45,229 nt of DNA from Candidatus Woesearchaeota archaeon (GTDB taxonomy: Archaea; Nanobdellota; Nanobdellia; Woesearchaeales; UBA10200). Position numbers and translations under genes: made by a program. Location: contig JACPBN010000006.1 of NCBI GenBank assembly GCA_016180275.1, positions 1-45,229 of the forward strand, written 5' to 3'. Positions 1,643 through 25,272 of the stretch are shown one piece after another (positions within the stretch are counted from its first letter, which is position 1; the number at the start of each line of letters is the position of its first letter). Under the pieces are notes generated by a model that was given only the letters and a program-made list of their open reading frames with translations, was not told the DNA's origin and made no database searches.

Positions 1643-4600
1643 GAAAATCTGCTGAGAGCAATGGAAGCAGAAAGATGATGTTTGTAATAGTTTTAGCTCT
1701 CTTGCTAGCTTTAGTGTTGGCTACGTTGGTTAGTGCTGCATGGACTGATAATTTCACTAATCTAGGGGGAAAGTTCTCTGGATTTTCTTCCAGCAAATGG
1801 ACAGTGATACTGGTGAATGGGGCTTTGCTTGCAGGAGTTGGCTATGTTGGAAGCACATTATTGAATACTGGAGCAAATAAGATAGATGACAAGCAGATAA
1901 AAGCAATACAGCTTGCGTTAATTGGTGTTGGATTACTGATCGCTTACCAGATCTATGAGTCAGGGCTTCATGACTTGTTATGGAAAATTCCTGACATAAA
2001 TAATTTCATGCATATAAGAGTGATAGTTAACTTAGCATTGGTTGCTGCATTGCTTTACTTATTGTATACCTGGCTTAAGCTAAAGCCTGAGAAAGGCTCT
2101 GGATTGTTTGATGTCATCATAGTCGGAGTCATACTTATGATGTCAGTCACCATGGTGCATCCAGGCGAGAAATATGACAAGACAACCTACCATTATATCT
2201 GGGAATGGGAAAGCGTTGTGCCGTTCAGATTTTATCTGCTTGGAGACTCTGGGTGCACATTCTATGATTATAAAGGACAGTATTTTGAGGAGAATGGGAA
2301 ATGGATCTACGATGGGTTTGTAAATTCCGAGGTAACAGACGGAAACCTGATTCCTGAGCTTAATAAAGCAAAAGAATTGAGAGCAAAAACCGAAGAAGAG
2401 GTAACAGATCCAGAAGAGAAAAGATTTTATGGAATTATGAAAAACCTGCCGCCTGGCTATGTAACAGCAAAGACAAAAGTGGATAAATACTGTTATACCA
2501 AAGAAAGCATTGATGAATATCTTAAGCTTAAATCAGAAGACAAAGCATATACAGCAACTGTAAAGACGCCTTCTTCAGATGAGATCAGCGCAACAGGCGG
2601 ATTTGGAATCATCAGAGGATATCACTTAATTATTTTCATACTTGGAGCAATCATATTATCATGGGCTGCCAAAGTCTGGGAGCTTATGGCAAAAGCTGAG
2701 AATCTAAGCATTGCAATATCCATAATAATCGCAGCGATGCTTGCAAACGCCGGGACATCTATGCAATCATTTGCCTGGCTGATACAGATAATAATCATCT
2801 TAACATTGGTAAAGTCAATGGGCATAGAATTAAAGACAGCTGCTGCATGGGAAGAATTCTGGACATGGGTAGCACTTGCATTCTTCTCATGGATAGTAAA
2901 CTGGATTGCAACATCTGTTGATCCATCATATGGTCTGCCGATTGTCGGATGGATATTTGGATTTGCATTCAAAGGACTGTTCCCTACAATAGGATCTGCC
3001 ATTGTTGGGCTGTTGATACTATTATTATCAGGCTGGTACCTTTTCAGCGGCAGATGGCCAGAACACTGGTATATGAGATTAGGGATTGCTGCTGTAGCAT
3101 ACGGCATATTTTATTTTGTAATGCCACAGTATGCGACATCGCCAGGAGCCACATTAAAATTGCTATTATTAGTACTGTTATTTGCAGGAGTGATATTTGC
3201 AGGCAGCATGTGGTGGGGAGCATCAAAGGACAAGAAAGAGAAGAAAGAATCTATGCTGTTTAAGAGAGGAAGAGCACACATTTCCAATTTTGTAAGAGAA
3301 TGGCTAAATGACAATACATTGATAGCCCATATTAAGCAATGGTATGCGAGAATGACAAAACAACAGGTTAAGAAAATACCTGAAGTAGATATACCTGGCT
3401 TATTGCCATTTTATGTGTTGCAAAATCTGCCTTTATTTTATAATTTGTTCAATTTATGCAAAAGAACATGGATATATTATGCATATTGGGATGTGGTAAA
3501 GGCCCTTGATAAGCCTGATAACAAAGATGAAAAGAATAGAACCCCTAAGCAGCAGATTACTGATGGTATTGGGAATTATGTAAACCTGAAAAAAGTGAAG
3601 AAGCAGATAATTGATTACAGGTCTTCCCCAAGTAATTTATTAGGCCATTATGAATACGTAATGCTTGGGAAAGAGAAGAAGGCTGCTCAAGCAAGCAAGA
3701 CATATGCAGGATGGTGCAGCCACCATAAAAATCTGGCTAAAATCTATAATAAGACAGTTAAATTATTGCCGCAAGCATTGATTGCATTAGAGATAGGAGA
3801 TAAACAAGGATTCCAGCATTATGTAGGTGAGATACAATCATTGTTAAAGGATATGGATGGATTATTCACGAATATACCTGCCGCATATTCTCAAGTGAAT
3901 GATGAAGGCAATATAACAGCAATGGGTGAAGGATATATCAGAAGATTGCATGCATATTCGTGGCATAGCAAGCTTAGAAGCGCAATGATATATGCTTTGG
4001 GGATGGCAAATTCTGCATATTTATTTGATCATACATATAGGTTTGCAAATCCTGAAGCTGAATTAGAAGAAGGTGGCAAAGCTGGATGGAAAGTGGAGAA
4101 TGAAAGATATTATGAAGTCACTAATGATGGCAAATTTATCGATGACATAAATGAGTTTGTTGAGACAGGGACAGATATAAGGCAATATGTTGATGAGGAT
4201 TTTACAAAATATAGGAATGATGCAACTACGACAACAATTAAAAAATTAAAAGACCCTAGAGAAGTAATCACATTCAGTGATAATGTACCAAAAAATGCTT
4301 TCCAGGACATAATAAGCTGGATGAATACTGACTGGCTATTCTGGACAGATGATATGAAGTATGGCTTATACCATCTACGAAGCAGATCATTCAAAGATTA
4401 TGAAGAGAATTACCTAAAAAATCAATTCCATGATCATCATATAGGCAGGTCCAATAAGATCAACCGTGAAAATGGGTCATTTGACAGAAGAATCCTAACA
4501 AACCCAGGAATATGGAGATATTTAGGAAGAAGAAATTATTACGATAAAGACATCGGAAAATATGAGACATATAATCCTCTGCCATGGATATCATTGCACG

Positions 4601-4755
4601 GAATAACTGAATATCTCAAGCTTGAGTTTAGGAGAAGCTTTGATGATGCGCACCATAGGGAAGAAGCCATGGCACTATTCCCGGCAGCTGATAACCTAGA
4701 AGTTGCAGACGAGCTGATAACATCATTAAAAAAAGCATATACAAAGGGAAAGTAA
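1639..4755 (+). CDS. Large polytopic membrane protein (1038 aa), unknown family
   Basis: N-terminal signal/anchor MMFVIVLALLLALVLATLVSA. Roughly a dozen or more hydrophobic helices in the first ~520 aa, then a ~500-aa hydrophilic C-terminal region. Translationally coupled to the ATPase upstream. No motif I recognise. Confidence 0.8.
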   Translation: MRKSAESNGSRKMMFVIVLALLLALVLATLVSAAWTDNFTNLGGKFSGFSSSKWTVILVNGALLAGVGYVGSTLLNTGANKIDDKQIKAIQLALIGVGLLIAYQIYESGLHDLLWKIPDINNFMHIRVIVNLALVAALLYLLYTWLKLKPEKGSGLFDVIIVGVILMMSVTMVHPGEKYDKTTYHYIWEWESVVPFRFYLLGDSGCTFYDYKGQYFEENGKWIYDGFVNSEVTDGNLIPELNKAKELRAKTEEEVTDPEEKRFYGIMKNLPPGYVTAKTKVDKYCYTKESIDEYLKLKSEDKAYTATVKTPSSDEISATGGFGIIRGYHLIIFILGAIILSWAAKVWELMAKAENLSIAISIIIAAMLANAGTSMQSFAWLIQIIIILTLVKSMGIELKTAAAWEEFWTWVALAFFSWIVNWIATSVDPSYGLPIVGWIFGFAFKGLFPTIGSAIVGLLILLLSGWYLFSGRWPEHWYMRLGIAAVAYGIFYFVMPQYATSPGATLKLLLLVLLFAGVIFAGSMWWGASKDKKEKKESMLFKRGRAHISNFVREWLNDNTLIAHIKQWYARMTKQQVKKIPEVDIPGLLPFYVLQNLPLFYNLFNLCKRTWIYYAYWDVVKALDKPDNKDEKNRTPKQQITDGIGNYVNLKKVKKQIIDYRSSPSNLLGHYEYVMLGKEKKAAQASKTYAGWCSHHKNLAKIYNKTVKLLPQALIALEIGDKQGFQHYVGEIQSLLKDMDGLFTNIPAAYSQVNDEGNITAMGEGYIRRLHAYSWHSKLRSAMIYALGMANSAYLFDHTYRFANPEAELEEGGKAGWKVENERYYEVTNDGKFIDDINEFVETGTDIRQYVDEDFTKYRNDATTTTIKKLKDPREVITFSDNVPKNAFQDIISWMNTDWLFWTDDMKYGLYHLRSRSFKDYEENYLKNQFHDHHIGRSNKINRENGSFDRRILTNPGIWRYLGRRNYYDKDIGKYETYNPLPWISLHGITEYLKLEFRRSFDDAHHREEAMALFPAADNLEVADELITSLKKAYTKGK

Positions 4756-4756
4756 A

Positions 4757-6619
4757 ATGCCTGATGCCTTAGATACACAAAACGTTGGAAAAATAGAGGA
4801 TGATATCTTAACTGACTTAGGAGAAAGAATAGTAGAATTAGTTGAGCTAGAAAGAGAACTATCTAAAGCAGATGAGAAGAGAGAAAAGGCTAGAGCTATA
4901 ATCATGGATAAAGGGATACTTGCTCAAAAAAGCAAAAGATGGCAGAAGCTTGTAAGAGCTGTTGCAATGCTAGAGATATTACAGAAAAAACCAGAAGAAT
5001 TTATGCAGAGAAAAAGAGAGTATATCAGACAATTAGTGGGAGAAGCAACTTCTGGAAAGGAGATTAAGGATAAAAGTTTACTGGAGATTGCCAGCGTTAT
5101 AGCAAAGATAGATCTGCCTTCACCTGAGTTTTTGAGATTCTTGAAAGATGCTTTAGTTGCTGTAAATAAATTTGGCAAGAATAGCGCTGATGAAAGTTCA
5201 ATAAGGGAATTCAACGCTGAAATTGCAGGCTATGAAGCTAAAGTTGGCCAGCTGCCAGAAGAAGATAATGAGCAAAAGCAAAACAAGAAAAGTGCACTGG
5301 ATGTAATTGCCATGTTGAAGAGCTTAGCTAATGAAAATGAGCTGTATTACTTAAGCGCATACAGGCAAGACATAGAAGCATGGCCGCAATATGCCCAGAC
5401 AACATCTGAAGGGATAGGCTTTTTTAGCACCAGAGTAAAAGAGTATATAGAAGGAACTGAGCAAGCTACTACAAACAAAGGCGTGAGAATTAAAGGATTG
5501 GTCTCAAGATTCAGAGATACAAAGTTATGGAAATTAATTGAGGGGAATGATGCAATAAAAAATTTAAGGACTTATCCGCAGCAATTAAAATTTTATGATA
5601 TGATGAGAATTTACACTGAAAGTGCAGCTAAAGACCTGAATTGGGAAGGGACATTCAAGATGCCAAATGGCAAAGATGTGAAAATGCCATTCTTAGGCCC
5701 TCAAGGATTTTACCATAACCTAGATAAGGGCAGAAATTTCATAAGGTTGGTAAGAGATCATTTTGGAAACCATATTTTTGCAAATGATTTGGAAAGAGTG
5801 AAAAATGCTGTGCATGAGCAGCCTGTAAAATTTGTAGAAGAGTTCGCTAAATTTGAAGGGATAATAAAAAGCCCGCAGCACCAGATTGGAGTAATACATG
5901 CTGCCATGCAGGAGCTTAATAGAATATTGATGCTAAGAATCCTTCATTTAACACAAGAGATGCAAAAAAGAGTTTCTGAAGAAGAGAGGAAGATTGCCAA
6001 GATAATCAGAGGCTTAGGCGGAGAGCATGAAAGCGCAGTCAATGCACTGCAACATGTTATCGGCAAGAAAAAGACTGATTTAGAGAAAGAGTGGAATGCC
6101 CTGACATCAGCTTATGAATTTACAGAGGGCGAGCTTGTTGTAAGATACCTTGATGAAAGCACTGAAGTGAATGAGATTATAGAGCTTAACCTTAATCTGC
6201 ACGGGATTAACATAAGGTATAGTGAAAATGTGAGAAGACAGCTTGAAGCTGCAAAAAATCTTAAAGAGTTTGGAAGCACAATAACTACCGGTAATTTTAG
6301 CCCTGATGATATAATAAGTATCAACACAGGATTTACAGAATACTTGCCAACTCAAGCGCAGTTGAACAATGCAATTTTGGATAATAACAAAATTGAAGAA
6401 ATCCTAAGGCAGAAAGGCAGCGCTAACCTGCCTTTAATATTGGAAAAGATACAAAAATTAAAAGAGCTGATCCAAGACTATCAAAAATTGCATGAGACTA
6501 TAATGAAGATATTGCAAAAATTAGAGATTGAGAGCAATGCAACAGAATCTAGCACAACATCTGGAAACAACCTTAGTTCAAATAATGTAAATATCAAGTT
6601 TCCAGATAAAATTGTATAA
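4757..6619 (+). CDS. Coiled-coil-rich soluble protein (620 aa), unknown family
   Basis: Starts 1 nt after the previous stop. E/K/L/Q-rich heptad-like stretches at both ends. No TM segment and no catalytic motif recognised. Confidence 0.8.
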   Translation: MPDALDTQNVGKIEDDILTDLGERIVELVELERELSKADEKREKARAIIMDKGILAQKSKRWQKLVRAVAMLEILQKKPEEFMQRKREYIRQLVGEATSGKEIKDKSLLEIASVIAKIDLPSPEFLRFLKDALVAVNKFGKNSADESSIREFNAEIAGYEAKVGQLPEEDNEQKQNKKSALDVIAMLKSLANENELYYLSAYRQDIEAWPQYAQTTSEGIGFFSTRVKEYIEGTEQATTNKGVRIKGLVSRFRDTKLWKLIEGNDAIKNLRTYPQQLKFYDMMRIYTESAAKDLNWEGTFKMPNGKDVKMPFLGPQGFYHNLDKGRNFIRLVRDHFGNHIFANDLERVKNAVHEQPVKFVEEFAKFEGIIKSPQHQIGVIHAAMQELNRILMLRILHLTQEMQKRVSEEERKIAKIIRGLGGEHESAVNALQHVIGKKKTDLEKEWNALTSAYEFTEGELVVRYLDESTEVNEIIELNLNLHGINIRYSENVRRQLEAAKNLKEFGSTITTGNFSPDDIISINTGFTEYLPTQAQLNNAILDNNKIEEILRQKGSANLPLILEKIQKLKELIQDYQKLHETIMKILQKLEIESNATESSTTSGNNLSSNNVNIKFPDKIV

Positions 6620-6631
6620 ATAGGTGGAAAT

Positions 6632-9256
6632 ATGACTGAACAAAAAGCAGATGCACATGAACAAGGCGCACATGATGACAAGAGTGATAAAAGCGGATGG
6701 CTCAGTGCTCACGCTTTTAATGCAGTAACTGGTTTTGTGAGAGGAAGAATAGGAGGATATTGGAGAAGTTCACTGCCTCAGCCTTTAGAGTCTGGAAATG
6801 AGACACCTGTACAGGCTAGGCTATCAGATGAGAAAATATTTACAAGACTGGATAACATAGGCAGGCACCTCGGCGAGATAATAGAAGTTAGCTGGGATGA
6901 AGCTGAAGACTTAAAAGAAGAGATTACAAAAGAATACTTAAAGATAGGCCCATATAATGATTTGGAAAGAATTGATACTGAAATGCCTTTAACTGAAGGC
7001 GGCACAAATGTCAAGATGCCAAAAGAAGACAATACAAGAAGGGTAGAATATAAATGCCCGACCCTAGCCAGAACAAAGATCAGCATAAATAACCAAGAGT
7101 TTAATGATTTAACAGAGATAGGGAATTTTTTGCGCAATCATAGCACAGTGATAGATTTTACTGCCCTAAAAGAAAGGCTAGCTGTTTGGATTGAAAACGA
7201 GCTCAAGATAAAATCAATTGCAAAAAAGATCAGGGAATCAAATGCAGTTGCAGATGCAGTAAGCGCTATCAAGTATCCTAGCGGAAGAACAGATTTATAT
7301 GAATATACCCCATTAGAAGTTGAACCTGTTACTCTTCTAAATTTTGGAGGTGGAAAGGCTATTGGGCCAAAGCCAACATTTGACCCAATAAAGGATAAGC
7401 CTTTATTCGGAAAGAAACCATTTAACACAATATCTGATGTTTACAGCTTTGCCCAGACAAACCTTGCTGATTTCAGGAGATTTTTTATAGATGATTTAGA
7501 AAATAAAGAAATCCTTGTAGAATGGGTTGAGAAGGAACTGGGCTTAAAGGCATTGGCGAAAAAGATTTCAAAGATGTCCAGGGTAGATGAATTTCTGGGA
7601 TTTTTTCCTAGCAACAGGCCATTGGATTATCGCGAACCTGAATATGTTGAACAATTAACTTTTTTCGGATATAAAAATAATGTAGCTGATATTGTAAATA
7701 TTTTAGATTATTACAGAGGACAGATTACGTCCACTACGGCCCCTGATTTTGGGGAAGAGATCCAAACACGTAAAAACCAGCTGATAGGAGAAAAAGAAGG
7801 CTCATTAACAAAACTTATCTGGGTATTAGAGATAATAGGCAAAAATGAGAAAAACTTCTATAAGCAGCTAAGCGACATGAGAAAACACACAGCTGTGTTG
7901 AATGATTTAAGAAACACAATGATGAGAGAAAATTGGACAAAGCAGAGAGTTCATTTCAGGCATACTTATATGGTGACTAAAATGTACCATATATATAAGG
8001 AGAGGCCTGATGATATTGTATTTTTTAAGGATGCCCATGCTGATTTCAAAAGAGATGAAGAGACTGATTTTGGATTGGATGAGAATGGAATGCCATTAGA
8101 AGTTTATGAGCATAACGGTGAATGGTATGTATTGACTGATCACTGGTTTTATAATATTTCTCAGAATGAATGGCAGATGAAAAAAATAATAGAGAAAAAA
8201 GGAAAAGATAATGCCAGAAAAATTTTTTATGGCAGGGCTGATGGAAGCAAAGCATGGAACAGTGAACTAGGTGTGGGCCTTGCTAATATTTATAACAATG
8301 GCTTGGGAAGAAAAGTAGCAAAGGAATTTGTTGAGCCATTGGACCTAATCGAAGCAATAACATATATATGCACAAACTGGGACGCTTATAGAGATGATTT
8401 CAGAGATGGCAGGTTTCATCCGCACAGCAAGACTTACTATGATTATGTTTTAGCTGCAAATATATATCATCCTGTAACAAAGGAATTTAAAGGCATATGG
8501 CATAGTTTGTTTGGAGTTGTTGTGCCTGTGAATGCCATTACTGTTGGAAGAGGTAAGATGGTACAATGGAATTCTAACCCATGGAAAAGAATGCCAGTAC
8601 ATGGCGAAATTTTAGGAGAAAATATGGATGCAAGGCTTCCGTTTGATGAGCGGAGAGTAACACGGGAATTTGAATTAGAATACCTGGATTCTGCAGGAAA
8701 TATACAACATATGAAAGTTGATGATAAAAATAAACCGTATGTTAGAAAGCCTGCACATATGTGCCCTGCATTTGACAGGATATCTGTGCAAATAAAAGGA
8801 AAGGATGAAGAAGAAGCACATGGGCATGGCAATGTAGGAGGAGGCTTTTTCTCCAAAATCAAATCATTATTTGTTTCAAGGCATGAAGAAGAACCCCACA
8901 CAACAGCTGGAACACATGAAGACTTAAATGCTGTTGATAAAGGAGGATATGAAGAGAATTGGGTGCATTGGGGCAGAATGTATTATTATGAAGGTACAGG
9001 AGGCATAAATAATTTATCAGAGAATCCTGATCCTTGTACAAGCACAAGAGGGACTGCTAAATACGTAATAGACCGTGTCATAAGAGAAACTTCGAGCAAG
9101 GAAGAAGCCAGAAAAATATTAAAGGGGCATCTTTATGATTTCGGCGTAAGAAAACAAGGCATAGAGCTGATCGATGACCCATTTGGCGGTGCAGAAGAGC
9201 ACTTGCTAAGGTTTGGGAAGTATAAGGACAAATATAAGACTTATAGGCCAGGTTAG
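6632..9256 (+). CDS. Large soluble protein (874 aa), unknown family, with an internal ~60-aa duplication
   Basis: SD aggtgg lies 5 nt before the ATG. Repeated block FNxLxEIxxF...LxxWIExELxIKSIAKKI (aa ~153-210) and FNTISDVYSF...LVEWVEKELGLKALAKKI (aa ~261-322). No TM segments. Confidence 0.8.
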   Translation: MTEQKADAHEQGAHDDKSDKSGWLSAHAFNAVTGFVRGRIGGYWRSSLPQPLESGNETPVQARLSDEKIFTRLDNIGRHLGEIIEVSWDEAEDLKEEITKEYLKIGPYNDLERIDTEMPLTEGGTNVKMPKEDNTRRVEYKCPTLARTKISINNQEFNDLTEIGNFLRNHSTVIDFTALKERLAVWIENELKIKSIAKKIRESNAVADAVSAIKYPSGRTDLYEYTPLEVEPVTLLNFGGGKAIGPKPTFDPIKDKPLFGKKPFNTISDVYSFAQTNLADFRRFFIDDLENKEILVEWVEKELGLKALAKKISKMSRVDEFLGFFPSNRPLDYREPEYVEQLTFFGYKNNVADIVNILDYYRGQITSTTAPDFGEEIQTRKNQLIGEKEGSLTKLIWVLEIIGKNEKNFYKQLSDMRKHTAVLNDLRNTMMRENWTKQRVHFRHTYMVTKMYHIYKERPDDIVFFKDAHADFKRDEETDFGLDENGMPLEVYEHNGEWYVLTDHWFYNISQNEWQMKKIIEKKGKDNARKIFYGRADGSKAWNSELGVGLANIYNNGLGRKVAKEFVEPLDLIEAITYICTNWDAYRDDFRDGRFHPHSKTYYDYVLAANIYHPVTKEFKGIWHSLFGVVVPVNAITVGRGKMVQWNSNPWKRMPVHGEILGENMDARLPFDERRVTREFELEYLDSAGNIQHMKVDDKNKPYVRKPAHMCPAFDRISVQIKGKDEEEAHGHGNVGGGFFSKIKSLFVSRHEEEPHTTAGTHEDLNAVDKGGYEENWVHWGRMYYYEGTGGINNLSENPDPCTSTRGTAKYVIDRVIRETSSKEEARKILKGHLYDFGVRKQGIELIDDPFGGAEEHLLRFGKYKDKYKTYRPG

Positions 9257-9312
9257 GCATAGGTAAGCAAAGAGGAATATTATCTAGCAAATAAATATAA
9301 GAAATCACAAAA

Positions 9313-9378
9313 ATGAGCATCACAAACATAACCAAGCACGAAGACTATCTCAAGAAGCAGCGCATGAACAGACTGTAA
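9313..9378 (+). pseudogene. Copy A of the 5' end of the 13518 gene (21 codons then stop)
   Basis: MSITNITKHEDYLKKQRMNRL* aligns with MPTDKLAQHEEYLRKMHKNRL of the intact gene at 13518. The leader ataagaaatcacaaaaa matches copy C at 16 of 17 nt. Confidence 0.7.
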
Positions 9379-9410
9379 GCAATGAATGACCGATGAGGAT
9401 AAAATAAACC

Positions 9411-9426
9411 GAAAGGTTTAAATATA
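9411..9426 (+). promoter_or_regulatory. BRE/TATA box (gaaaggtttaaatata) of ATPase cassette 1
   Basis: Consensus-like box upstream of ATG 9473. The spacing is lengthened by the tandem 15-mer duplication that follows. Confidence 0.45.
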
Positions 9427-9456
9427 ATTATAAAAATAATCATTATAAAAATAATC
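9427..9456. repeat. Perfect tandem duplication, 2 x 15 bp (attataaaaataatc)
   Basis: 9427-9441 is identical to 9442-9456, with a partial third copy (attt). Located between the TATA box and the start codon. Confidence 0.85.
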
Positions 9457-9472
9457 ATTTAAGGCGCCTAAG

Positions 9473-10867
9473 ATGAAATTTTACAACAGAGAGCAAGAAC
9501 TAGCTGAGATAGAGCATTTTTATAAGAATAAGCCTGCGATGCTAGTCATAACAGGAAGAAGAAGGATAGGCAAGACTGAGCTGGTAAAGAAGATAAAGAA
9601 ACAAGTGTATTTCTTTGTTGACAGCGAAAAATCAGAAACAATGCTGATACAGGAATTTTTCTCTGAATTAAAACAAAATTTTGAAGTGGATAAGCTGATA
9701 AAAGTGTCTAGCTGGGAAGAGCTTTTTGACCTAATCTTTAAAATTGCGCAGAAAAAGGAGATAGTTGTTTCTTTTGACGAGTTTCAAAGGTTTTTAAAGA
9801 TAGACCCATCAATAATATTCCAGCTCCAAAAATATTGGGATATGCACAAAAATAAGTCTAAAATATTTTTAGTTTTTACTGGATCTTCTGTCGGCATGAT
9901 CAAGAAGATCTTTATCGAGAATAATGCGCCGCTCTTTAAGAGAGCGCAGAATATAATCTATCTTAAGCCATTCAAGTTCAAGATTATCAGGGAAATCATG
10001 GCAGATTTTGGAATTAAGAAATTTGAAGAACAAATCCGCATATATGCGCTTTTCGGCGGAATTATCAACTATTACAGCCTGATGGATTTTTATAATGTTA
10101 AAAACTTAGAAGAGATATTTGAAAAGCTCATCCTAAGAAGATATGCACCATTGAAAAATGAAGTAAGAGAGGTTTTTATAGAGGAATTTGGAAAAGAGCA
10201 CAAGACATATTATTCAATACTTGCTGCATTGGCTGCAGGCAAAAATACAAAAAAAGAGATTGAAGATGTCGTAGATGTCAAAGGCACATCACTTTCTCCT
10301 TATTTTTATGACTTGATCGATATATTAAATATCGTTGACATTGAATTGCCATTTAATGAAGACAAAGGATCAAAAAAAGGAAGATATTCCCTTAAGGATA
10401 ATTTCTTTAAATTTTGGTTTAGGTTTATATTCAATAACATGAGCTATTATGAAAAAGAAGATTTTGCCCATATAGATAAGCTAATAAACAATAATTTTAA
10501 TGCTTTTGTAGGCCATGGCTTTGAAGAGATTTGCATGGAGTTAATCGAAGAAGATATAGTAAGACTGCCGTTTGAATGGACAAAAATAGGGAGATGGTGG
10601 TCTAGAAGAGGAGAAGAGATAGATATAGTAGCAGCAAATAATAATACTAAAGAAATTATGTTTATTGAATGCAAATGGCAGGAAGATGTAAATGCTGAAA
10701 AGGTACTGTCTGAGCTAAAAGAAAAAGCAAAGCTTGTTGAATGGCATAATGCAGATAGAAAAGAGCATTATGCAATATTTGCTAAAAGCTTTAAAGAATC
10801 TAAAAACATTATTGACAAGAATTTTTTGCTTTTTGAGCTAAATGATATTGAAAAGTTATTAAAGTAA
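9473..10867 (+). CDS. Archaeal AAA+ ATPase with a DUF234-type C-terminal domain
   Basis: MKFYNRExEL start, Walker A GRRRIGKT, Walker B VVSFDEFQ. C-terminal EEIDIVAANNNTKEIMFIECKWQ is the nuclease-fold-like DUF234 signature. Confidence 0.85.
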   Translation: MKFYNREQELAEIEHFYKNKPAMLVITGRRRIGKTELVKKIKKQVYFFVDSEKSETMLIQEFFSELKQNFEVDKLIKVSSWEELFDLIFKIAQKKEIVVSFDEFQRFLKIDPSIIFQLQKYWDMHKNKSKIFLVFTGSSVGMIKKIFIENNAPLFKRAQNIIYLKPFKFKIIREIMADFGIKKFEEQIRIYALFGGIINYYSLMDFYNVKNLEEIFEKLILRRYAPLKNEVREVFIEEFGKEHKTYYSILAALAAGKNTKKEIEDVVDVKGTSLSPYFYDLIDILNIVDIELPFNEDKGSKKGRYSLKDNFFKFWFRFIFNNMSYYEKEDFAHIDKLINNNFNAFVGHGFEEICMELIEEDIVRLPFEWTKIGRWWSRRGEEIDIVAANNNTKEIMFIECKWQEDVNAEKVLSELKEKAKLVEWHNADRKEHYAIFAKSFKESKNIIDKNFLLFELNDIEKLLK

Positions 10868-10893
10868 GTTTAATGTTAGGCTATAGAGTAAAA

Positions 10894-10996
10894 ATGACCA
10901 TCAACAAACATAACCAAGCACGAAGAGCACCTAAAAAAGCAGTACAAGAATAGATTAGAGGCTCTTAAAGACATCCATCATGAAGACAGGTTTTAG
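10894..10996 (+). pseudogene. Copy B of the 5' end of the 13518 gene (frameshifted, ~33 codons)
   Basis: One extra nt near the start relative to copy A, then TKHEEHLKKQYKNRLEALKDIHHEDRF*. The last 31 nt (cttaaagacatccatcatgaagacaggtttt) are identical to 13588-13618 of the intact gene. Confidence 0.8.
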
Positions 10997-10998
10997 TT

Positions 10999-12348
10999 AT
11001 GAAAGAATCCGAAACACTTGAGCTAAAAACATCAACATCTGAATTAAAGGAAGCCATAATCTCAATAGTTGCAATGCTGAACAAGCATAAGAAAGGCAAA
11101 GTGATATTTGGAATGGGAGATGATGGAACTGTTATTGGGCAGATGATTAGCGACAACACATTGAGAGAAGTATCACAAGCCATATTTGATAACATTGAGC
11201 CTAAGATATATCCGACGATTGCTGTAGAAGAGCCATCTATTGCAGTAAGTTTTGAGGACAATAATGCACCTTTTACAGCATATGGCAGAGCCTATATTAG
11301 AGTCGGCACAGAAAATAAAAAGATGACCCAACAAAAATACAATGAGTTATTATCCCTGAAAGCTACAAAACTAGAGTGGGATGCCCTGCCAATAAAAAAT
11401 ACATCAATAAAGGATATAGATCAAAAAAAAGTAGCTGCTTATCTTGAAAAAAGAGAGCAAAATAGAAGAATATCGAAGAAGATAAGCATGAAAAATCAGG
11501 AATTCCTAGAGAACATTAATGCATTGACAAAAGACGGTTTAGTGACAAATGCAGGTATGCTATTTTTCGGCAAAAATCCACAGAAACATATTTTACATTC
11601 TTCACTAAGGCTTGTAAGGATAAAAGGAACAGATATAGGCGGATTAATCTTAGACAGGATTGATGGCACCGGCACCTTATGGGAGATGGTAGAGCAAGCA
11701 GAGGATTTTATAAGAAGAAACATTAAATTAATAGGCTATAAAACTGAAAAAAGCTTTCAAAGGCAGGATAGATTTGAATACCCGATAAGCGCTTTAAGAG
11801 AAGCTATAATAAATGCGCTCATACATAGAAATTATCTGATAAAATCTGAGGCAATAGCTTATATTTATGATGATAAGATAGAAATTCTTAATCCTGGATT
11901 ATTCCCTAAAGGAACTACACCTGAACATCCAAAACATATCCCAAGAAATTTCTTGCTCAGCCAATATATGTATGATATCGGAGAAGTTGAAAAATATGGC
12001 TCAGGAATATTATCAATAAAAAAGAGATGCAAGGAAAATGGGAATAAATTGCCTAAATATGTATTTTCCGAACTTCACACTAAAATAATCTTCTATTCAT
12101 TAGAGCCAGAGAGAACTACCATGAGCAGCGGATTAAGTGAGGGATTAAGTGAGGGATTAAGTGAGGGATTAAAATCACTCCTTAATATTGTAATAAATAA
12201 TCCTGGAATTAAAGCTGTTAAAGTAAGCGAACTTTTACAAAGGCCTATAAAAACAATAGAAAGACAGATAAAAGAGCTAAAGCAAAAAGGCTTCATTGAG
12301 AGAAGAGGAAGCAGGAAAACAGGAGGATACTGGGAGATAAGTAAATAA
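10999..12348 (+). CDS. AlbA_2 (Schlafen-like, divergent AAA) plus HATPase_c_4-like plus C-terminal wHTH protein
   Basis: N-terminal ESETLELKTSTSELKEAIISIVAMLNKHKKGKVIFGMGDDGTVIG. Central YPISALREAIINALIHRNY. C-terminal VSELLQRPIKTIERQIKELKQKGFIERRG. Confidence 0.8.
   Translation: MKESETLELKTSTSELKEAIISIVAMLNKHKKGKVIFGMGDDGTVIGQMISDNTLREVSQAIFDNIEPKIYPTIAVEEPSIAVSFEDNNAPFTAYGRAYIRVGTENKKMTQQKYNELLSLKATKLEWDALPIKNTSIKDIDQKKVAAYLEKREQNRRISKKISMKNQEFLENINALTKDGLVTNAGMLFFGKNPQKHILHSSLRLVRIKGTDIGGLILDRIDGTGTLWEMVEQAEDFIRRNIKLIGYKTEKSFQRQDRFEYPISALREAIINALIHRNYLIKSEAIAYIYDDKIEILNPGLFPKGTTPEHPKHIPRNFLLSQYMYDIGEVEKYGSGILSIKKRCKENGNKLPKYVFSELHTKIIFYSLEPERTTMSSGLSEGLSEGLSEGLKSLLNIVINNPGIKAVKVSELLQRPIKTIERQIKELKQKGFIERRGSRKTGGYWEISK
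12130..12172 (+). repeat. In-frame tandem 12-bp repeat (ggattaagtgag x3 plus a partial copy) encoding (GLSE)3GL
   Basis: 12130-12141, 12142-12153 and 12154-12165 are identical. The repeat forms a linker before the C-terminal wHTH. Confidence 0.9.
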
Positions 12349-12360
12349 GAAACCACAAAA

Positions 12361-12450
12361 ATGCCAATCAACAAGCTAACACAACATGAAGAATATTTTA
12401 AGAGGCAGTATAAGGATAGGTTGGAAGCAATAAATAACCGTAAACTTTAA
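12361..12450 (+). pseudogene. Copy C of the 5' end of the 13518 gene (29 codons then stop)
   Basis: MPINKLTQHEEYFKRQYKDRLEAINNRKL*. Homology to the intact gene ends after RLEA, where the TATA box of the next cassette begins. Confidence 0.75.
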
Positions 12451-12454
12451 ATAT
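12442..12454 (+). promoter_or_regulatory. TATA box (aaactttaaatat) of the MNT-HEPN cassette
   Basis: Ends 24 nt before ATG 12478, which is leaderless spacing. Confidence 0.5.
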
Positions 12455-12477
12455 CAGTTGATAACTATAGTTGACAT

Positions 12478-13005
12478 ATGATAACTAAAGATAACAGCCT
12501 AAAAGTGATGGAAGTTTATTATAACAACCCTAGCGGAACTTTCCATATAAGGGAGCTTGCAAGGATCACAGGATTATCTAGCACAGGAATCATAAAGATA
12601 GCCAAGAGATTAAAGCAAGACGGATTATTAACATCAGAAAAGAAGAATGTTATTGAGGAGATAAGGCCAATATTAGAGACAAAGTTTTACCTGATGAAGA
12701 GGCTATATAATACTTATTCATTATATGAAAGCAGATTAATAGAGGAATTAAAGCATTTTTACGAACAGCCTGAAGCAATAATATTGTTCGGAAGCTATGA
12801 AAAAGGGACTGATAATGAAAAAAGTGACATAGATATAGCGGTGATAACAAATAAGCAAAAGCTCCCTGAATTAACAAGATTTGAAAAAAAGCTTAAGAGA
12901 AAGATAGACATTTTAACAATAGACCTTAAGAGCGCATCAAAGGAGTTTAAGAATTCGCTGGCTAATGGAATTGTGCTTGAAGGATATCTGGAATTGATAA
13001 AATGA
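12478..13005 (+). CDS. wHTH-fused nucleotidyltransferase (MNT-type antitoxin-like)
   Basis: N-terminal HIRELARITGLSSTGIIKIAKRLKQDGLL (wHTH). NTase motif ILFGSYEKGTDNEKSDIDIAV. Confidence 0.8.
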   Translation: MITKDNSLKVMEVYYNNPSGTFHIRELARITGLSSTGIIKIAKRLKQDGLLTSEKKNVIEEIRPILETKFYLMKRLYNTYSLYESRLIEELKHFYEQPEAIILFGSYEKGTDNEKSDIDIAVITNKQKLPELTRFEKKLKRKIDILTIDLKSASKEFKNSLANGIVLEGYLELIK

Positions 13006-13053
13006 TGACATTAAATAATAATATGATGCAACAATAAGAACATCGCACTAAAA

Positions 13054-13515
13054 ATGATACAGCCATTTGAATATTACATAAGAGAGAACCTAGTTGGAAA
13101 AACTGCCCCAAATACAAGCTTAGCCCTGGCTTTGATTAAAAAAGCAGAGAAAAGATTTAAGCGCATACAAAAGGCAGAAATTGCAGAAGATGAATCTACA
13201 CTGATCTTTGAAGATATATACGAAGCGATGAGAGAAGCCGGACAATCATTAATGCAGCTAGCGCAATACAAGCCATACTCTCATGAAGCAGTTATTGCAT
13301 TTCTTGATGACAAAGAACTGTTAGCCAAGATGAATATCAACATCCTTGATAATTACAGGATCCTGAGAAATAAGGCGGTATATCAAGCAGAGGAGATATC
13401 TTTGGAAAAATGCAAGGAAGCATTTAATTTTGCTAAAATAACCATCCCAAAGCTTAAAATAAAGTTTTTAGAGATGAATAAAAAGACTGATTTACAAAAA
13501 AACAAAGAAGCTTAA
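13054..13515 (+). CDS. HEPN-like partner of the nucleotidyltransferase
   Basis: All-helical ~150-aa protein directly after the NTase. Motif YRILRNKAVYQ (RNxxxY at the position of HEPN Rx4-6H). Same arrangement as 15629-16048. Confidence 0.6.
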   Translation: MIQPFEYYIRENLVGKTAPNTSLALALIKKAEKRFKRIQKAEIAEDESTLIFEDIYEAMREAGQSLMQLAQYKPYSHEAVIAFLDDKELLAKMNINILDNYRILRNKAVYQAEEISLEKCKEAFNFAKITIPKLKIKFLEMNKKTDLQKNKEA

Positions 13516-13517
13516 CT

Positions 13518-14450
13518 ATGCCAACCGACAAACTAGCGCAGCACGAAGAATACTTAAGAAAGATGCACAAGAATAGGCTGGAATCCCTTAAAGACATCCA
13601 TCATGAAGACAGGTTTTTTGAGACAGGGCTTGGCAATAATCTGCTTGAATTAAAGAATGCGGTCCATGACCTTGCTGAGAAAGGAAAAAAGATTACTTCT
13701 AAAGAGATTAAAGCAGTAATTGGCAACCAAAATATAAAAACAGAGTTAAGAAAATTCATTTATGCCAGAGTTGGGCATTTAATTAAAGAAGCTGAGTACC
13801 TCAAGAATGTTGCCTGCGCAATTGAAAATGAAAAGCATGATTCAAAGCATCTGGAGCATTTTGTGGAGAATATTGAAAGCTATGCCGTACACCTGAAAAA
13901 AGAGAGGGAGAGGGAGGTTGAGCATCTATTGCATAATTTCAGGCATACATTTGCAAGCTTGCTGCATCCGATAACTGCACATGAGCATAAATTAGCTGGT
14001 TTGCTGGAAAAGAACGTGCATCTGCTGAGGACATTGCTGCATAAGGATGAGCTAAGGCATTTTGCAGAGAATCTTCACAATGATGATGTGATCAATAAGA
14101 TGAAAGAGAGATTTGGCGAGAATAAGACTGGCAAAGCACTGTATCATTTTATTGAGCAGCATACTAAACTAAAATCATTGCCCGAGAAATTGATTGAGCG
14201 CGGGAGAAAAGTTTTTTCACGCGAATTGACAAAACATGAAGTTTTATTTAAAATCGCAGACATGCTTAATGAGAGAGCTGAGATTCTTGAGGAAAAAGCA
14301 AACAAGAAGATAAGAAAGATTATTGGCAAACAGATAAAGGCAATTGAGTATAAATGGGAGCAGGCAAAGAAAAAAAGCAGCAAATTGCTTGATGAGGCAT
14401 TAGAGCACCATTCCAAGATGGAAAGGTTCTATAGGAAGATTGGGCTATAA
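13518..14450 (+). CDS. Histidine-rich helical/coiled-coil protein (310 aa), unknown family. Its 5' end is the repeated target sequence.
   Basis: Long ORF with many H residues in helical context (HLEHFVENIESYAVHLKK, HLLHNFRHTFASLLHPITAHEHKL). The intact N-terminus matches fragments A-C. Confidence 0.75.
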   Translation: MPTDKLAQHEEYLRKMHKNRLESLKDIHHEDRFFETGLGNNLLELKNAVHDLAEKGKKITSKEIKAVIGNQNIKTELRKFIYARVGHLIKEAEYLKNVACAIENEKHDSKHLEHFVENIESYAVHLKKEREREVEHLLHNFRHTFASLLHPITAHEHKLAGLLEKNVHLLRTLLHKDELRHFAENLHNDDVINKMKERFGENKTGKALYHFIEQHTKLKSLPEKLIERGRKVFSRELTKHEVLFKIADMLNERAEILEEKANKKIRKIIGKQIKAIEYKWEQAKKKSSKLLDEALEHHSKMERFYRKIGL

Positions 14451-15058: not shown

Positions 15059-15072
15059 ATAGATTAACTGGC

Positions 15073-15090
15073 TTGCGAAAAGTTTATATA
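15073..15090 (+). promoter_or_regulatory. BRE/TATA box ttgcgaaaagtttatata
   Basis: Identical 18-mer to 14475-14492, upstream of ATG 15123. Confidence 0.55.
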
Positions 15091-15093
15091 TTT

Positions 15094-15109
15094 GTCCATA
15101 TTTATGGAC
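15094..15109. promoter_or_regulatory. Inverted repeat gtccata-tt-tatggac (candidate operator)
   Basis: Perfect 7-bp arms immediately downstream of the TATA box, covering the expected transcription start of the wHTH-NTase gene. Confidence 0.4.
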
Positions 15110-15122
15110 TTAAGTACTAAAA

Positions 15123-15632
15123 ATGGGACAAGAAACCATTATTATGGACAAAATAGCAGGATTATTGTATGAATATCCTGAAAAGGAGTTTACAATCAGA
15201 GAAATCTCTAAGAATATTAAGATACCAAAATCCACAGTGCAAAAGTATTTATCTGACCTTAAAGAAAAAGGGCTTGCAGATAATAGAAATAAAGCAAGCA
15301 ATTCTGCTTTATTCAGGGTTAAAAAAACAAATTATTATATCGAAAAGATTTTTGAAAGTGGTTTGATAGAATATCTCGAAAAAATATTAAGGCCTAGCTG
15401 CATAATTCTTTTTGGAAGCTTTAGAAAAGGAGAATCAGATAAAGACAGCGATATAGATATTTTTGTAGAGACCGTTGAGAAAAAGAAAGTAAATTTAGAA
15501 TTATTTGAAAAGAAGCTAAAACATAAGATAGACTTATTTATCGAAAAAGACATTAATGATTCACCTCAAAATTTAAAACTAAATATTATAAATGGGATAA
15601 AACTAGCCGGCTTTGCCAGGATAAAAACATGA
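15123..15632 (+). CDS. wHTH-fused nucleotidyltransferase (MNT-type), paralogue of 12478-13005
   Basis: FTIREISKNIKIPKSTVQKYLSDLKEKGL (wHTH). ILFGSFRKGESDKDSDIDIFV (NTase motif). Confidence 0.8.
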   Translation: MGQETIIMDKIAGLLYEYPEKEFTIREISKNIKIPKSTVQKYLSDLKEKGLADNRNKASNSALFRVKKTNYYIEKIFESGLIEYLEKILRPSCIILFGSFRKGESDKDSDIDIFVETVEKKKVNLELFEKKLKHKIDLFIEKDINDSPQNLKLNIINGIKLAGFARIKT

Positions 15633-16048
15633 TAACTTGGAATAACTGCGATAAGAATTTTATTAAAAAAGTTGAGATAGATATATTTAGGATTAAATCT
15701 ATTGCAGAAAAAGCATTTCAAAGAAAAAAAGTTATTGATAATCTTAAAGAGAGCGAAGAAAATACCTCTTTTATTGTTGAAGGATATTATGAAGTAATTA
15801 AAGAGCTGTTAGTTGCATATCTCTTAAGGAATGGCCTTAGATCAAGAAATCACCAATGCCTAATAGCATATTTTTATGCCCAAAATCCTAGCTTGGAAGG
15901 CGAGGCTAAATTTATTGAACAACTTTTATACTATAGAAACAGGCTAGATTATTATGGAGAGAGTATCCCAACAGATTTCTATAAAAGGAATAAGCAAGAA
16001 ATATCTAAGATTATAGATATGCTGGAGAAAATAGCCAGAATAAACTAA
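15629..16048 (+). CDS. HEPN-like partner (ATGA overlap with the NTase)
   Basis: Helical 139-aa protein with motif LLYYRNRLDYYGE (RNxxxY). Start overlaps the NTase stop. Confidence 0.6.
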   Translation: MITWNNCDKNFIKKVEIDIFRIKSIAEKAFQRKKVIDNLKESEENTSFIVEGYYEVIKELLVAYLLRNGLRSRNHQCLIAYFYAQNPSLEGEAKFIEQLLYYRNRLDYYGESIPTDFYKRNKQEISKIIDMLEKIARIN

Positions 16049-16065
16049 GCCTAAATAACTTTTCT

Positions 16066-16082
16066 CACAAAAGATTTATATA
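16066..16082 (+). promoter_or_regulatory. BRE/TATA box cacaaaagatttatata
   Basis: Consensus-like box upstream of operon 2. The palindrome tatacgtata (16097-16106) and the direct repeats atatacgt (16133-16140, 16144-16151) lie between it and the start. Confidence 0.45.
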
Positions 16083-20330: not shown

Positions 20331-20391
20331 AGGATATTTTACCCCTGCTAAAATATTAGGTTATGTAATAATAGCAGGGTTGTTTATAAAT
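20331..20391. repeat. Direct repeat copy 1 (61 bp) with an internal GC hairpin and TATA-like end
   Basis: aggatattttacccctgctaaaatattaggttatgtaataatagcagggttgtttataaat. Stem ccctgct/agcaggg. About 53 of 61 nt are identical to 21959-22019. Confidence 0.8.
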
Positions 20392-20411
20392 GAGCTATGT
20401 TTCCAGCAAGA

Positions 20412-21662: not shown

Positions 21663-21686
21663 TTTACAGCATTAAAGTATGAAAAG

Positions 21687-21699
21687 TATATAAATTTTT
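21687..21699 (-). promoter_or_regulatory. BRE/TATA box (minus strand aaaaatttatata) of the ATPase gene
   Basis: Ends 25 nt upstream of the minus-strand ATG at 21662 (leaderless spacing). Confidence 0.5.
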
Positions 21700-21752
21700 C
21701 GTTCTGAAACTAGAACGAATGTTTATATTATTCGTTCTGAAACTAGAACGAA
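21698..21752. promoter_or_regulatory. Two identical 22-bp palindromes ttcgttct-gaaact-agaacgaa, 33 bp apart, flanking a second TATA-like box
   Basis: 21698-21719 and 21731-21752 are identical. The first abuts or overlaps the minus-strand BRE; gtttatatta lies between them. Confidence 0.6.
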
Positions 21753-21958
21753 TAAAAGGAAGGATAATAGAGAAAGCCATTGAGATGTTTTCAAAAGCTA
21801 GTATTGATCTACTAGGTTTTGTATGCCTTTAGAAATATTTGGAACTAAGGCATCTAAGAAAGCTTCATTTGAGATAATTCCTGTATCTCTTAAATATAAT
21901 AATGCCTGTGTTAATGCCTGCAAGAATGTTTTGATCTAGAGATGGATATTATAGATTG

Positions 21959-25267: not shown

Positions 25268-25272
25268 CAATA

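Follow-up and report, generated by a model that had tools for sequence, protein, structure and literature searches.

Organisation of the locus

The window analysed here is a stretch of 45,229 nt (contig JACPBN010000006.1, GC content 34%) from a metagenome-assembled genome (MAG) of Candidatus Woesearchaeota, a member of the DPANN archaea. The subject is an array of small gene cassettes that separates an operon from the gene encoding a His-rich protein of 310 aa (identical to HYU06_00580). The last gene of the operon encodes a protein of 874 aa, and its end at 9256 is the left flank of the array. Between 9256 and 13518 three units were found, a DUF234-type ATPase, an AlbA_2 protein and a pair of MNT and HEPN-like proteins (Table 1). 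Their boundaries are marked by four copies of the 5' end of the 310-aa gene, of which A, B and C are partial and D is the beginning of the intact gene. All four copies are co-oriented and, as determined by MAFFT alignment and a repeat finder, located exactly at the cassette boundaries; the spacers outside the copies comprise only 2-26 nt.

Table 1. Features of the window and of the loci compared with it. Positions refer to the window unless a locus (L number) is given. ORF, open reading frame; BRE, transcription factor B recognition element; HTH, helix-turn-helix; wHTH, winged HTH.
Feature	Position	Strand	Description
Upstream operon	470-9256	+	Four co-directional genes (ORFs): 390-aa AAA ATPase, 1038 aa, 620 aa, 874 aa
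Copy A	9297-9392	+	Leader (-16) and codons 1-22, in-frame TAA where the others have GAA, then junction J1 (GCAATGAATGACCG)
Cassette 1, promoter	9409-9459	+	BRE/TATA (CCGAAAGGTTTAAATA), then tandem operator-like repeat (ATTATAAAAATAATC, 2 copies); read from sequence
Cassette 1, cargo	9473-10867	+	DUF234-type ATPase, 464 aa (Pfam, PADLOC)
Copy B	10890-10994	+	Short leader and codons 1-33, +1 frameshift (extra A), ends 4 nt before the AlbA_2 ATG
Cassette 2, cargo	10999-12348	+	AlbA_2/Schlafen-like, HATPase_c_4 and wHTH, 449 aa (Pfam)
Copy C	12345-12440	+	16-nt leader and codons 1-23, then junction J1 (GCAATAAATAACCG)
Cassette 3, promoter	12441-12477	+	BRE/TATA (CGTAAACTTTAAATAT) and palindrome CAGTTGATAACTATAGTTGAC (inverted repeat I1)
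Cassette 3, cargo	12478-13515	+	HTH-MNT nucleotidyltransferase (12478-13005) and 153-aa HEPN-like partner (13054-13515)
Copy D	13518-13617	+	First 100 nt of the intact 310-aa gene
Intact target gene	13518-14450	+	His-rich, 310 aa; no Pfam, PDB, PHROG or NCBIfam match
Second bracketed unit	20331-22019		61-nt direct repeats 20331-20391 and 21959-22019, 87%
Third bracketed unit	24261-25296	+	24-nt duplication 24261-24284 and 25273-25296, 96%, around ORF6N cassette 24389-25267
Tyrosine recombinase, XerA type	41260-42141	+	The only one in the window, 28 kb from the array and outside it
Junction in L001			DUF234
Junction in L002			MNT175 + HEPN, MNT208, 297 + 165 aa, two DUF234-cassette remnants
Junction in L003			MNT208 + DUF1016-type nuclease
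Junction in L006			DUF234, 297 aa, MNT208, 217 aa
Junction in L008			MNT180 + 160-aa pair
Partial copy in L001	L001:8338-8421		
Partial copies in L002	L002:6103-6173 and 7216-7291		
Partial copy in L003	L003:6221-6295		
Partial copy in L008	L008:8872-8933		
tRNA_bind hotspot in L027	L027:7877-9089		1 cassette, 69-nt direct repeat, 85.5%; L028 likewise
tRNA_bind hotspot in L026	L026:3305-7001		3 cassettes, 3 or 4 copies
tRNA_bind hotspot in L019	L019:3909-7394		3 cassettes, 4 copies, different order, mixed orientation

The ORF of copy A (9313-9378) encodes MSITNITKHEDYLKKQRMNRL and that of copy C (12361-12450) MPINKLTQHEEYFKRQYKDRLEAINNRKL, each followed by a stop codon. Copy B (10894-10996) reads MTITNITKHEEHLKKQYKNRLEALKDIHHEDRF once the extra A is removed, and over its final 31 nt (CTTAAAGACATCCATCATGAAGACAGGTTTT) it does not differ from D. 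In their leaders A and C agree at 16 of 17 nt; the 310-aa gene itself begins 2 nt past the stop codon of the HEPN-like gene, without a leader. The original prediction, a reading of this stretch that preceded our analysis, had described the four copies with their coordinates and peptides, the 31-nt identity of B and the leader match of A and C, and all of this was verified. In blastn searches against the window the copies gave 81% identity over 91 nt for B-D (E 2.7e-19), 83% over 65 nt for A-B (E 1.8e-13), 72% over 96 nt for A-C (E 1e-9) and 73% over 66 nt for C-D (E 1e-5). With the N-terminal 40 aa as query, tblastn found only the four copy sites at E < 1e-3, and when the 45 kb were compared with themselves, nothing passed E < 1e-4 apart from the copy pairs, a DUF234 paralogue and the 61-nt repeat at 20331/21959. 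No other repeats of the window are as strong as the copies. Therefore, the copies are not an artefact of AT-richness, and chance likeness, which the original prediction had allowed for, is ruled out.

Copy D is an outlier over nt +24 to +68 of the gene, where it is identical to every other copy at 31 of 45 positions; the apparent divergence of A-C from D is thus inflated. Codons 14-17 of the intact allele (13557-13568) encode RKMH, and all close relatives and all partial copies have KKQY or KRQY at this place.

The 310-aa protein had 7 matches in a collection of 5.8 billion proteins, its own sequence and six relatives with 58-82% identity, while a query by exact sequence gave no entry for it. 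The gene order of 470-9256 is also found in L001-L004 and L008. No family was found for the 310-, 874-, 620- and 1038-aa proteins in Pfam, NCBIfam, PHROG, PADLOC and PDB, and the function of the target gene and its operon was dropped as a clue for this reason. The 390-aa gene gave weak ATPase_2/TniB/AAA_16 matches only; the TniB/AAA match was considered as a hint at transposition and rejected, since no transposase backs it. No tRNA or known RNA family was found in the window as a target.

Cargo, promoters and junctions

The 464-aa protein matched DUF234 (1e-24, 87.2 bits) and ATPase_2 (9e-22, 78.4 bits) of Pfam, both above the cutoffs, and the PADLOC candidate PDC-S27 (5.6e-43), whose arrangement of an N-terminal ATPase_2 and a C-terminal DUF234 domain it has; it is putative defence cargo. 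The names DUF234 and AlbA_2 of the original prediction were confirmed by Pfam and PADLOC, and of the predicted MNT-HEPN pair the MNT half is clear (Polbeta 3.6e-13, NTP_transf_2 1.2e-11, PADLOC PDC-M05A 2e-17). Its 153-aa partner gave no Pfam HEPN match and a weak match to PADLOC PDC-M05B (E 1.3e-3). Within the AlbA_2 gene a perfect 12-nt tandem repeat (GGATTAAGTGAG, ~3.5 copies, 12130-12172) encodes GLSEGLSEGLSEGL, a stretch that separates the HATPase_c_4 from the wHTH domain.

Most cassettes have BRE/TATA promoters of their own. As had been read before, such boxes precede the DUF234 and the MNT unit and none is recognisable before the AlbA_2 gene, whose stop codon falls within the leader of copy C; this unit is little more than a bare ORF. 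The element at 9409-9459 would serve as promoter of cassette 1; DUF234 of L001 has an equal arrangement in front of it, and L002 retains its remnants. The cassette 3 promoter is also present in L002, L019, L026 and L027, and the MNT-HEPN cassette extends from just upstream of its own promoter to its own stop codon. As a rule, a cassette promoter comes with a dyad or tandem operator-like repeat of its own (9426-9459, 12455-12475, 15090-15135).

The junctions follow a pattern. With p for a partial copy and i for the intact gene of a locus, gene homology ends after codon 23 (...yTGGAA) in A, C, L001p, L002p2, L002p3 and L008p, and more loosely in L003p. The break is followed by the filler GCnnAAATrACCG and then by the BRE/TATA (CCGnAAnnnTTTAAATA) of DUF234, MNT175, MNT180 or MNT208. 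Copy B is exceptional, since it extends to codon 33 and no promoter stands before AlbA_2. The combination of BRE/TATA and J1 was also tried as a window-wide motif of cassette ends and rejected: 5 loose matches were found with 0.69 expected, and only the one at 9406-9424 is relevant, so the pattern reads as a promoter consensus and not as a recombination site. A sigma-70 promoter and terminator scan was uninformative for an archaeal host.

The same junction in relatives

Eight views of the junction were compared, the contigs of the window's 310-aa protein and of its six relatives plus one further metagenome contig. In the most distant ones, L004 and L005 (58%), the site is empty and 9 nt separate the stop codon of the 874-like gene from the start of the 310-aa gene; the two genes are direct neighbours where inserts are missing, as had been predicted. 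In L001, L002, L003, L006 and L008 the cassette content varies exactly at this point, from one cassette in L001 and L008 through two in L003 to four units in L006 and at least four, besides cassette remnants, in L002. Partial 5' copies stand before cassettes in five loci (the window, L001, L002, L003 and L008). At the empty sites of L004 and L005 no partial copy was found. The original prediction had named as its counter-case a conserved family of mini-ORFs that precede the 310-aa gene in all relatives without variable cargo. Since partial copies are absent from empty sites and the cargo varies, this is not what the relatives show, and the hotspot reading holds: the 874-aa/310-aa junction is a recombination hotspot in which accessory cassettes were inserted successively.

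From the 3' end of the 874-aa gene across copy A into DUF234, the sequence is colinear with L001 at 72%, a level also seen in the flanking genes, and copy A is colinear with L001p. Therefore, the first insertion is old and vertically shared rather than recently imported. Over 1126 nt the MNT175-HEPN cassettes of the window and of L002 are 86% identical; the cassette comes first in the array of L002 and last in that of the window, and the copies adjoining it differ between the two. Strains have their cassettes in permuted order, and L002 and L003 retain promoter/operator stubs of cassettes whose genes have gone.

In L002 a further 26 nt (5950-5975) in the disrupted 3' end of an 881-aa gene are 92% identical to the core that encodes HEEYLKK. 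They lie in an ORF of 29 aa (5909-5998) and may be a fourth scar or a chance match; they were not counted.

Decay, divergence and mosaic structure of the copies

The partial copies have decayed in different ways. Copy A has its in-frame stop (TAA for GAA) and B an additional A, the start codon is gone from L001p and L002p2, 23 nt are missing from L002p3, and the tails past codon 23 differ among copies. The copies are decaying scars and not a family of peptides or RNAs, which agrees with the preference of the original prediction for scars.

Copy A was 83% identical to the intact gene of L006. Copy B was 86% identical to the intact gene of L002 and 81% to D, and C with its leader was 83.5% identical to the intact gene of L001 over 85 nt and 73% to D. 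On these alignments the partial copies of the window are at least as close to intact genes of other strains as to D. The pN/pS ratios were 0.15 for C-L001i, 0.18 for B-L002i, 0.12 for L008p-L008i (synonymous 9/12.2, nonsynonymous 5/56.8), 0.26 for C-D, 0.32 for B-D and 0.49 for A-D, and comparisons of intact genes with each other ranged from 0.11 to 0.33. When the observed number of differences was scattered randomly over D and the nonsynonymous changes were tallied, runs in which these did not exceed the observed number made up a fraction of 0.039 for B, 0.022 for C and 0.23 for A. Since the stretches are short and transition bias was ignored, this evidence is moderate. We favour, with moderate confidence, that the copies would have diverged as parts of working genes in different lineages; the origin from diverged orthologues that had been predicted is consistent with the synonymous-rich differences. 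That the units were carried in together with these gene ends, as had also been proposed, agrees with the allele-like differences but does not hold as a recent import for A and DUF234, whose insertion is the old one shared with L001 at 72%. Discrete N-terminal allele types were considered as evidence of import and dropped: the A/B and C types differ by compensating 1-nt indels and are less discrete than they seem at first sight.

Some copies are mosaics. The left part of L002p2 is A-like (37/45, with the shared GACT and the TGTAA stop) and the part right from the junction is C-like (30/32). Copy B has an A-like start and the 31 nt identical to D. The sequence upstream of B aligns with the 3' flank of DUF234 in L001, so B is the positional equivalent of the intact 5' end of L001. 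The leader of C is homologous to the leaders of A and of the L001 intact gene; B and D are without it.

Bracketed units at other sites

The original prediction had noted duplicated gene boundaries at 20331/21959 and 24261/25273 and suggested a common process. Both duplications are real (Table 1), and the process recurs elsewhere in the window and in other genomes. The 61-nt repeats contain a hairpin (CCCTGCT..AGCAGGG) and TTGTTTATAAAT and surround a minus-strand AAA_14/DUF4143 gene (20412-21662); in L003 a single copy of the repeat was found and the AAA_14 gene is absent. The 24-nt duplication is the 3' end of a 114-aa HTH gene (GAATAAyGGTGAGCAGGTCTGA).

In three other Woesearchaeota genomes a second hotspot lies beside the 3' end of an unrelated tRNA_bind-domain gene, where the MNT175 cassette is bracketed by a repeat of the last 13-17 codons of that gene. 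The cargo there is of the toxin-antitoxin (TA) type, namely MNT175+HEPN, HepT+MNT, an AbiEii pair and a Polbeta pair, and in L019 and L026 the partial copies are more alike mutually than to the intact gene end. The HTH-MNT175 family has more than 446 close homologues, and the few with a source name are labelled as Woesearchaeota or Nanoarchaeota.

An AlbA_2 homologue lies in L007:3467-4842 and L008:12956-14330 between a 383-aa gene and a metallophosphatase-like gene. It is fused in frame to the left copy (leader and ATGAACAATAACAAAG) of the first 16 nt of the metallophosphatase-like gene, the right copy (ATGAAGAATCATAAAA) overlaps the AlbA_2 stop codon, and the site is empty in L001:14417-14425 and L003:10553-10564. 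In each of its contexts the AlbA_2 unit resembles a bare ORF that takes its stop codon from the flanking sequence. In L020 a MazE-like TA pair lies between the two copies of a 45-nt direct repeat (8494-8538 and 9352-9396, 89%) of the region upstream of ERCC4; this interval contains the motif TGTCCAGTG(G/T)GAA four times, once inverted. The MNT175 pair in L011 is in another context and no flanking direct repeat was found there.

Further observations concern neighbours of these units. Two copies of the palindromic TTCGTTCTGAAACTAGAACGAA (21700-21755) stand upstream of the minus-strand AAA_14/DUF4143 gene and are probably an operator. Just right of the 21959 repeat lies a decayed second DUF234 ATPase gene (22078-22423), 69% identical to 10616-10798, with start and first codons intact, followed by an internal deletion and stops. 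Between a 98-aa and a 65-aa gene the window contains a second HTH-MNT and HEPN-like pair (15059-16070, genes at 15123-15632 and 15629-16048), which is missing from L007 and L008 and represented in L003 (9044-9100) by a promoter/operator stub only; no clear flanking duplication was found there beyond two similar BRE/TATA boxes. In L001 a cassette of a 131-aa gene and MNT232 downstream of the 310-aa gene is flanked by a 95-nt inverted repeat (10960-11054 and 12880-12970, 74%), a bracketing unlike the direct repeats elsewhere.

Search for recombinases and recombination sites

No integrase was found within the array in profile searches, in agreement with the original prediction. The only tyrosine recombinase of the window matched Pfam Phage_integrase (8e-42), the XerA-like entry 4a8e as its best PDB match (1.8e-43) and NCBIfam XerA_Arch with 219.8 bits (cutoff 220). 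The integron integrase model reached 211.5 bits (cutoff 265), with the match split where the IntI-specific insert is expected, and no IntI was found in the window by Pfam, NCBIfam and PDB searches. Among the called genes of L001-L008, L011, L019, L020, L026 and L027, within ±4-10 kb per locus, no recombinase family was found. Likewise, the array contains no transposase family, and no terminal inverted repeats at cassette ends appeared in the inverted-repeat lists; the duplications are 16-96 nt long and diverged.

Copies A-D did not fold like attC sites (z +0.7 to +2.5 compared with shuffled sequences on both strands, computed by general folding of single-stranded DNA and not with a dedicated attC model) and gave no Rfam match. 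A dif-like site consists of two 11-nt inverted arms and a 6-nt spacer (PMC8371274); among 15 aligned copies no 28-nt position reached a mean arm complementarity of 5.5/11, with a window background of 2.9/11. The only motif present in all copies is CAyGAAGA, which is also fixed by coding constraint (HEE). The identical blocks of 22-31 nt in A-B and B-D lie in different parts of the repeat, and few strains are at hand for mapping crossovers. Gene-terminus repeats that bracket the units as att sites do in arrays of integrated mobile genetic elements (iMGEs) and cis-mobilizable elements (CIMEs) are present at these loci. A virus or plasmid as carrier of the 5' core or of MNT175 was dropped as a candidate, since neither the core nor the MNT175 cassette had a match in viral contigs.

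A model for the growth of the array

The phenomenon is solid and general within the lineage, and its mechanism has to be inferred. For homology-driven insertion and reshuffling, by out-of-register or Campbell-type recombination on a gene terminus, we see about an even chance. Recombination of this kind, its circular or linear intermediates and a transfer between strains would account for the array as follows. Incoming DNA would bring its own leader and the first 20-33 codons of the 310-aa gene. The 310-aa gene would stay intact because the incoming DNA carries its own 5' copy, and the displaced older 5' end would be left upstream as a dead fragment that gains stops, frameshifts and start-codon losses. 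Along one route, DNA of a related strain with the order partial copy, cassette, gene would pair out of register with the resident intact 5' end; along the other, a cassette would be looped out as a circle between flanking copies and re-enter by a single Campbell-type crossover. Either route could add, delete and reorder cassettes and would give rise to mosaic copies. A few primary illegitimate joins would have seeded the system, one after codon 23 (J1) and one after codon 33 (AlbA_2), and the recurring codon-23 break with its filler may be a single old illegitimate join that was inherited while the cargo was swapped behind it. In the simplest reading of the window, AlbA_2 would have come with the leader and 5' end now seen as C and displaced B, and MNT175-HEPN would then have come with D and displaced C. 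Out-of-register pairing via alternative repeats has been demonstrated in pneumococcal transformation (PMC3784515). Furthermore, the repeat sequence differs at every locus and, therefore, one fixed att site cannot explain all loci; the differing docking sequences, the free orientation at the tRNA_bind hotspot, the mosaics and the lack of integrase, attC and dif together argue against a dedicated site-specific system.

Several points weigh against this model. No intermediate was observed, be it a circle, an empty-site read or a hybrid junction within one population. The codon-23 break with the J1 filler (GCnnAAATrACCG) recurs with four cargo types, for which a site-specific cut could be as good an explanation as common ancestry followed by cargo swapping. 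Some duplications have only 16-24 nt, which is short for RadA-type recombination. Copy A was indistinguishable from neutral decay in the simulation, and the codon tests as a whole cover 21-33 codons, ignore transition bias and are of modest significance. The N-terminal variants of the intact gene mostly track strain relationships, and some copies may be old in-situ duplicates. L006 holds cargo without detectable partial copies. Finally, the preponderance of direct over inverted repeats at a spacing of 300-5000 nt (23 vs 4 in 12 loci, 177 kb) is a biased count, as several loci were picked for carrying the gene or the cassette.

Site-specific tandem accretion is the main alternative, which we regard as unlikely. 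The units would be minimal or decayed CIME-like elements with a gene terminus as att site and a tyrosine integrase acting in trans, supplied by a plasmid or virus or of the low-specificity IntpTN3 type, and each element would bring a replacement gene end like elements that target tRNA genes. The gene-terminus direct repeats of 24-96 nt resemble att sites of archaeal integrases, which have 8-69 bp, lie in tRNA genes and 3'-distal parts of protein genes and occur in tandem arrays (PMC6563490); CIME or accretion arrays without integrase are described in bacteria (PMC5704250), and IntpTN3 catalyses an exchange like homologous recombination between identical segments of at least 104 bp (PMC8371274). 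The codon-23 break with a similar J1 filler before four cargo types and the blocks of 22-31 identical nt in some copy pairs (A-B, B-D) would fit as well. Against accretion, no integrase was found in or next to any of ~10 arrays from independent assemblies, the XerA-type enzyme of the window being 28 kb off. The repeats come from the 310-aa gene (5' end), the tRNA_bind gene (3' end), the metallophosphatase gene (start), the HTH gene (3' end) and the upstream region of ERCC4; since the repeat is a different one at each locus, one specific integrase cannot serve all. Different repeats accompany the MNT175-HEPN cassette and are, therefore, no intrinsic part of it. Trimming from promoter to stop codon is unlikely to result from random decay of larger elements, all copies share no block beyond coding constraint and no dyad symmetry, and viral contigs match neither the 5' core nor MNT175. 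Duplication of the target in situ, by a transposition-like or repair process with staggered breaks or microhomology-mediated template switching that doubled 16-100 nt, is improbable as the general explanation. It would explain why younger pairs are similar to their own intact gene (L003p-L003i 93%, L002p3-L002i 91%, L027 85.5%, L020 89%) and why the length varies by event from 16 to 96 nt; the tracking of strain relationships by intact N-terminal variants and the segment of A and DUF234 vertically shared with L001 are also in its favour. However, synonymous-rich differences (L008p-L008i; B 0.039, C 0.022) are unexpected if one partner decays neutrally, C has a leader that is homologous to those of A and L001i and is missing from its presumed sisters B and D, and the partial copies of L019 and L026 are closer to each other than to the intact end. 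Neither terminal inverted repeats at the cassettes nor a transposase were noticed, and the order of cassettes is permuted between strains.

That the copies are functional mini-ORFs, leader peptides or regulatory 5' elements needed for cassette expression, is very improbable. A and C keep the ATG and a leader with an AT-rich, TATA-like stretch ~20-27 nt upstream, and a partial copy lies directly upstream of most cassette promoters, but L004 and L005 have empty sites without a mini-ORF, and stops, frameshifts, lost ATGs and deletions occur at differing positions and leave peptides of different lengths and C-termini. Besides, the tRNA_bind repeats are 3' ends in either orientation to the cargo, folding is no better than that of shuffled sequences and Rfam gives no match. 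The leader-peptide reading is largely refuted by these comparative data. An archaeal integron, or an attC cluster without integron integrase (CALIN), has hardly any likelihood left, even though the array is a tandem of small co-oriented cassettes enriched in TA-type cargo and integrons and CALINs are reported in archaeal MAGs including Nanoarchaeota (PMC9668308). The repeats fold worse than shuffled ones on both strands, they are fragments of coding sequence and not imperfect palindromes, the integrase model stays below its cutoff with the match split at the insert expected for IntI, and the cassettes have BRE/TATA promoters of their own. The term integron-like, used in the original prediction, is therefore not supported in the mechanistic sense: attC-like hairpins and IntI were not found and most cassettes have their own promoters. 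Of the two mechanisms it had proposed, homology-armed insertion fits better than serial site-specific integration, and neither is proven.

Homology-driven insertion may extend beyond this junction. We tentatively suggest that Woesearchaeota, and perhaps DPANN archaea widely, have an analogue of the integron, an integrase-free, homology-templated capture of cassettes in which duplicated gene termini would serve as portable docking sites. If this is true, minimal TA and defence cassettes would excise, travel between strains and stack via the recombination machinery of the host, and the capture process would explain how TA modules move without mobility genes.

Relation to known systems

The array functionally resembles an integron or a CIME-accretion island and is a member of neither family. 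In tandem accretion of CIMEs and iMGEs, such as the ICESt1-related elements at fda and the archaeal tRNA arrays, units also lie between partial repeats of a gene terminus (PMC5704250, PMC6563490), the target is kept intact by the replacement end of the newcomer, and units without integrase exist. Here, in contrast, the 5' end of a protein gene within an operon serves as target, the units measure 1.1-1.6 kb and are cassettes of one operon each, ~10 arrays yielded no integrase, the repeat varies by locus and the same cassette occurs with different repeats. Integrons and CALINs, including archaeal ones, share with it compact and mostly co-oriented TA and defence cassettes at one insertion point beside a fixed gene and an order and content that vary between close relatives, but the array has no attC hairpins, IntI or attI, its site is borrowed host coding sequence and its cassettes have their own promoters.

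In the orphan toxin-immunity arrays downstream of rhs and cdiA genes, fragments of a conserved gene region separate displaced modules, and growth by homologous recombination has been proposed for them, in which incoming DNA would recombine on the conserved fragment and displace the older module. The present array is like their mirror image. There, the modules that are displaced consist of alternative C-terminal tips of one gene with immunity genes, whereas here the cargo is unrelated to the target, the repeat is the 5' end (the 3' end at the tRNA_bind hotspot) and the product is not diversified. Tycheposons of marine cyanobacteria are tandem cargo units between partial copies of tRNA genes, many of them cargo-only; they are defined by tyrosine recombinases and tRNA targets, neither of which is present here. 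Unequal crossing-over in pneumococci is alike in that repeat-bearing DNA pairs out of register and yields tandem structures bordered by repeats (PMC3784515). That case is experimental and concerns a bacterium, with repeats derived from insertion sequences and duplications of 100-900 kb in Streptococcus pneumoniae merodiploids (PMC3784515), whereas here, in an uncultivated archaeon, the repeats have 40-100 nt, the inserts have ~1 kb and the mechanism is a proposed one.

In the literature searched we found no account of DPANN arrays in which gene termini delimit minimal TA or defence cassettes. Small defence and TA modules have been described as highly mobile (PMC2701414); they encode no mobility functions, and outside integrons and larger mobile elements their insertion is largely unexplained. 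Here the footprint of insertion is unusually legible, with sites that are empty, filled once or filled several times, permuted orders and fossil gene ends as a record of successive events; no fewer than two independent hotspots of uncultivated DPANN archaea show it. Should the process be homology-driven, streamlined genomes of episymbionts could turn over accessory immune genes with their operons undisrupted, a partial gene-terminus repeat that brackets an insert of 1-2 kb would be a simple computational signature for finding cargo, and circles or out-of-register recombination would make the model testable. If a recombinase acting in trans is responsible, the arrays would be a handle for finding the enzyme.

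Other repeats in the window

Towards the end of the window lies a non-coding AT-rich region (44088-44245) with about a dozen GGGA-core repeats (TGGGAAT, TGGGAAC, TGGGAT, TGGGAC and similar forms) at an irregular spacing of about 9-13 nt. The region is possibly a replication origin or a protein-binding array. Further to the right, a 32-nt direct repeat was found at 44612-44643 and 45071-45102.

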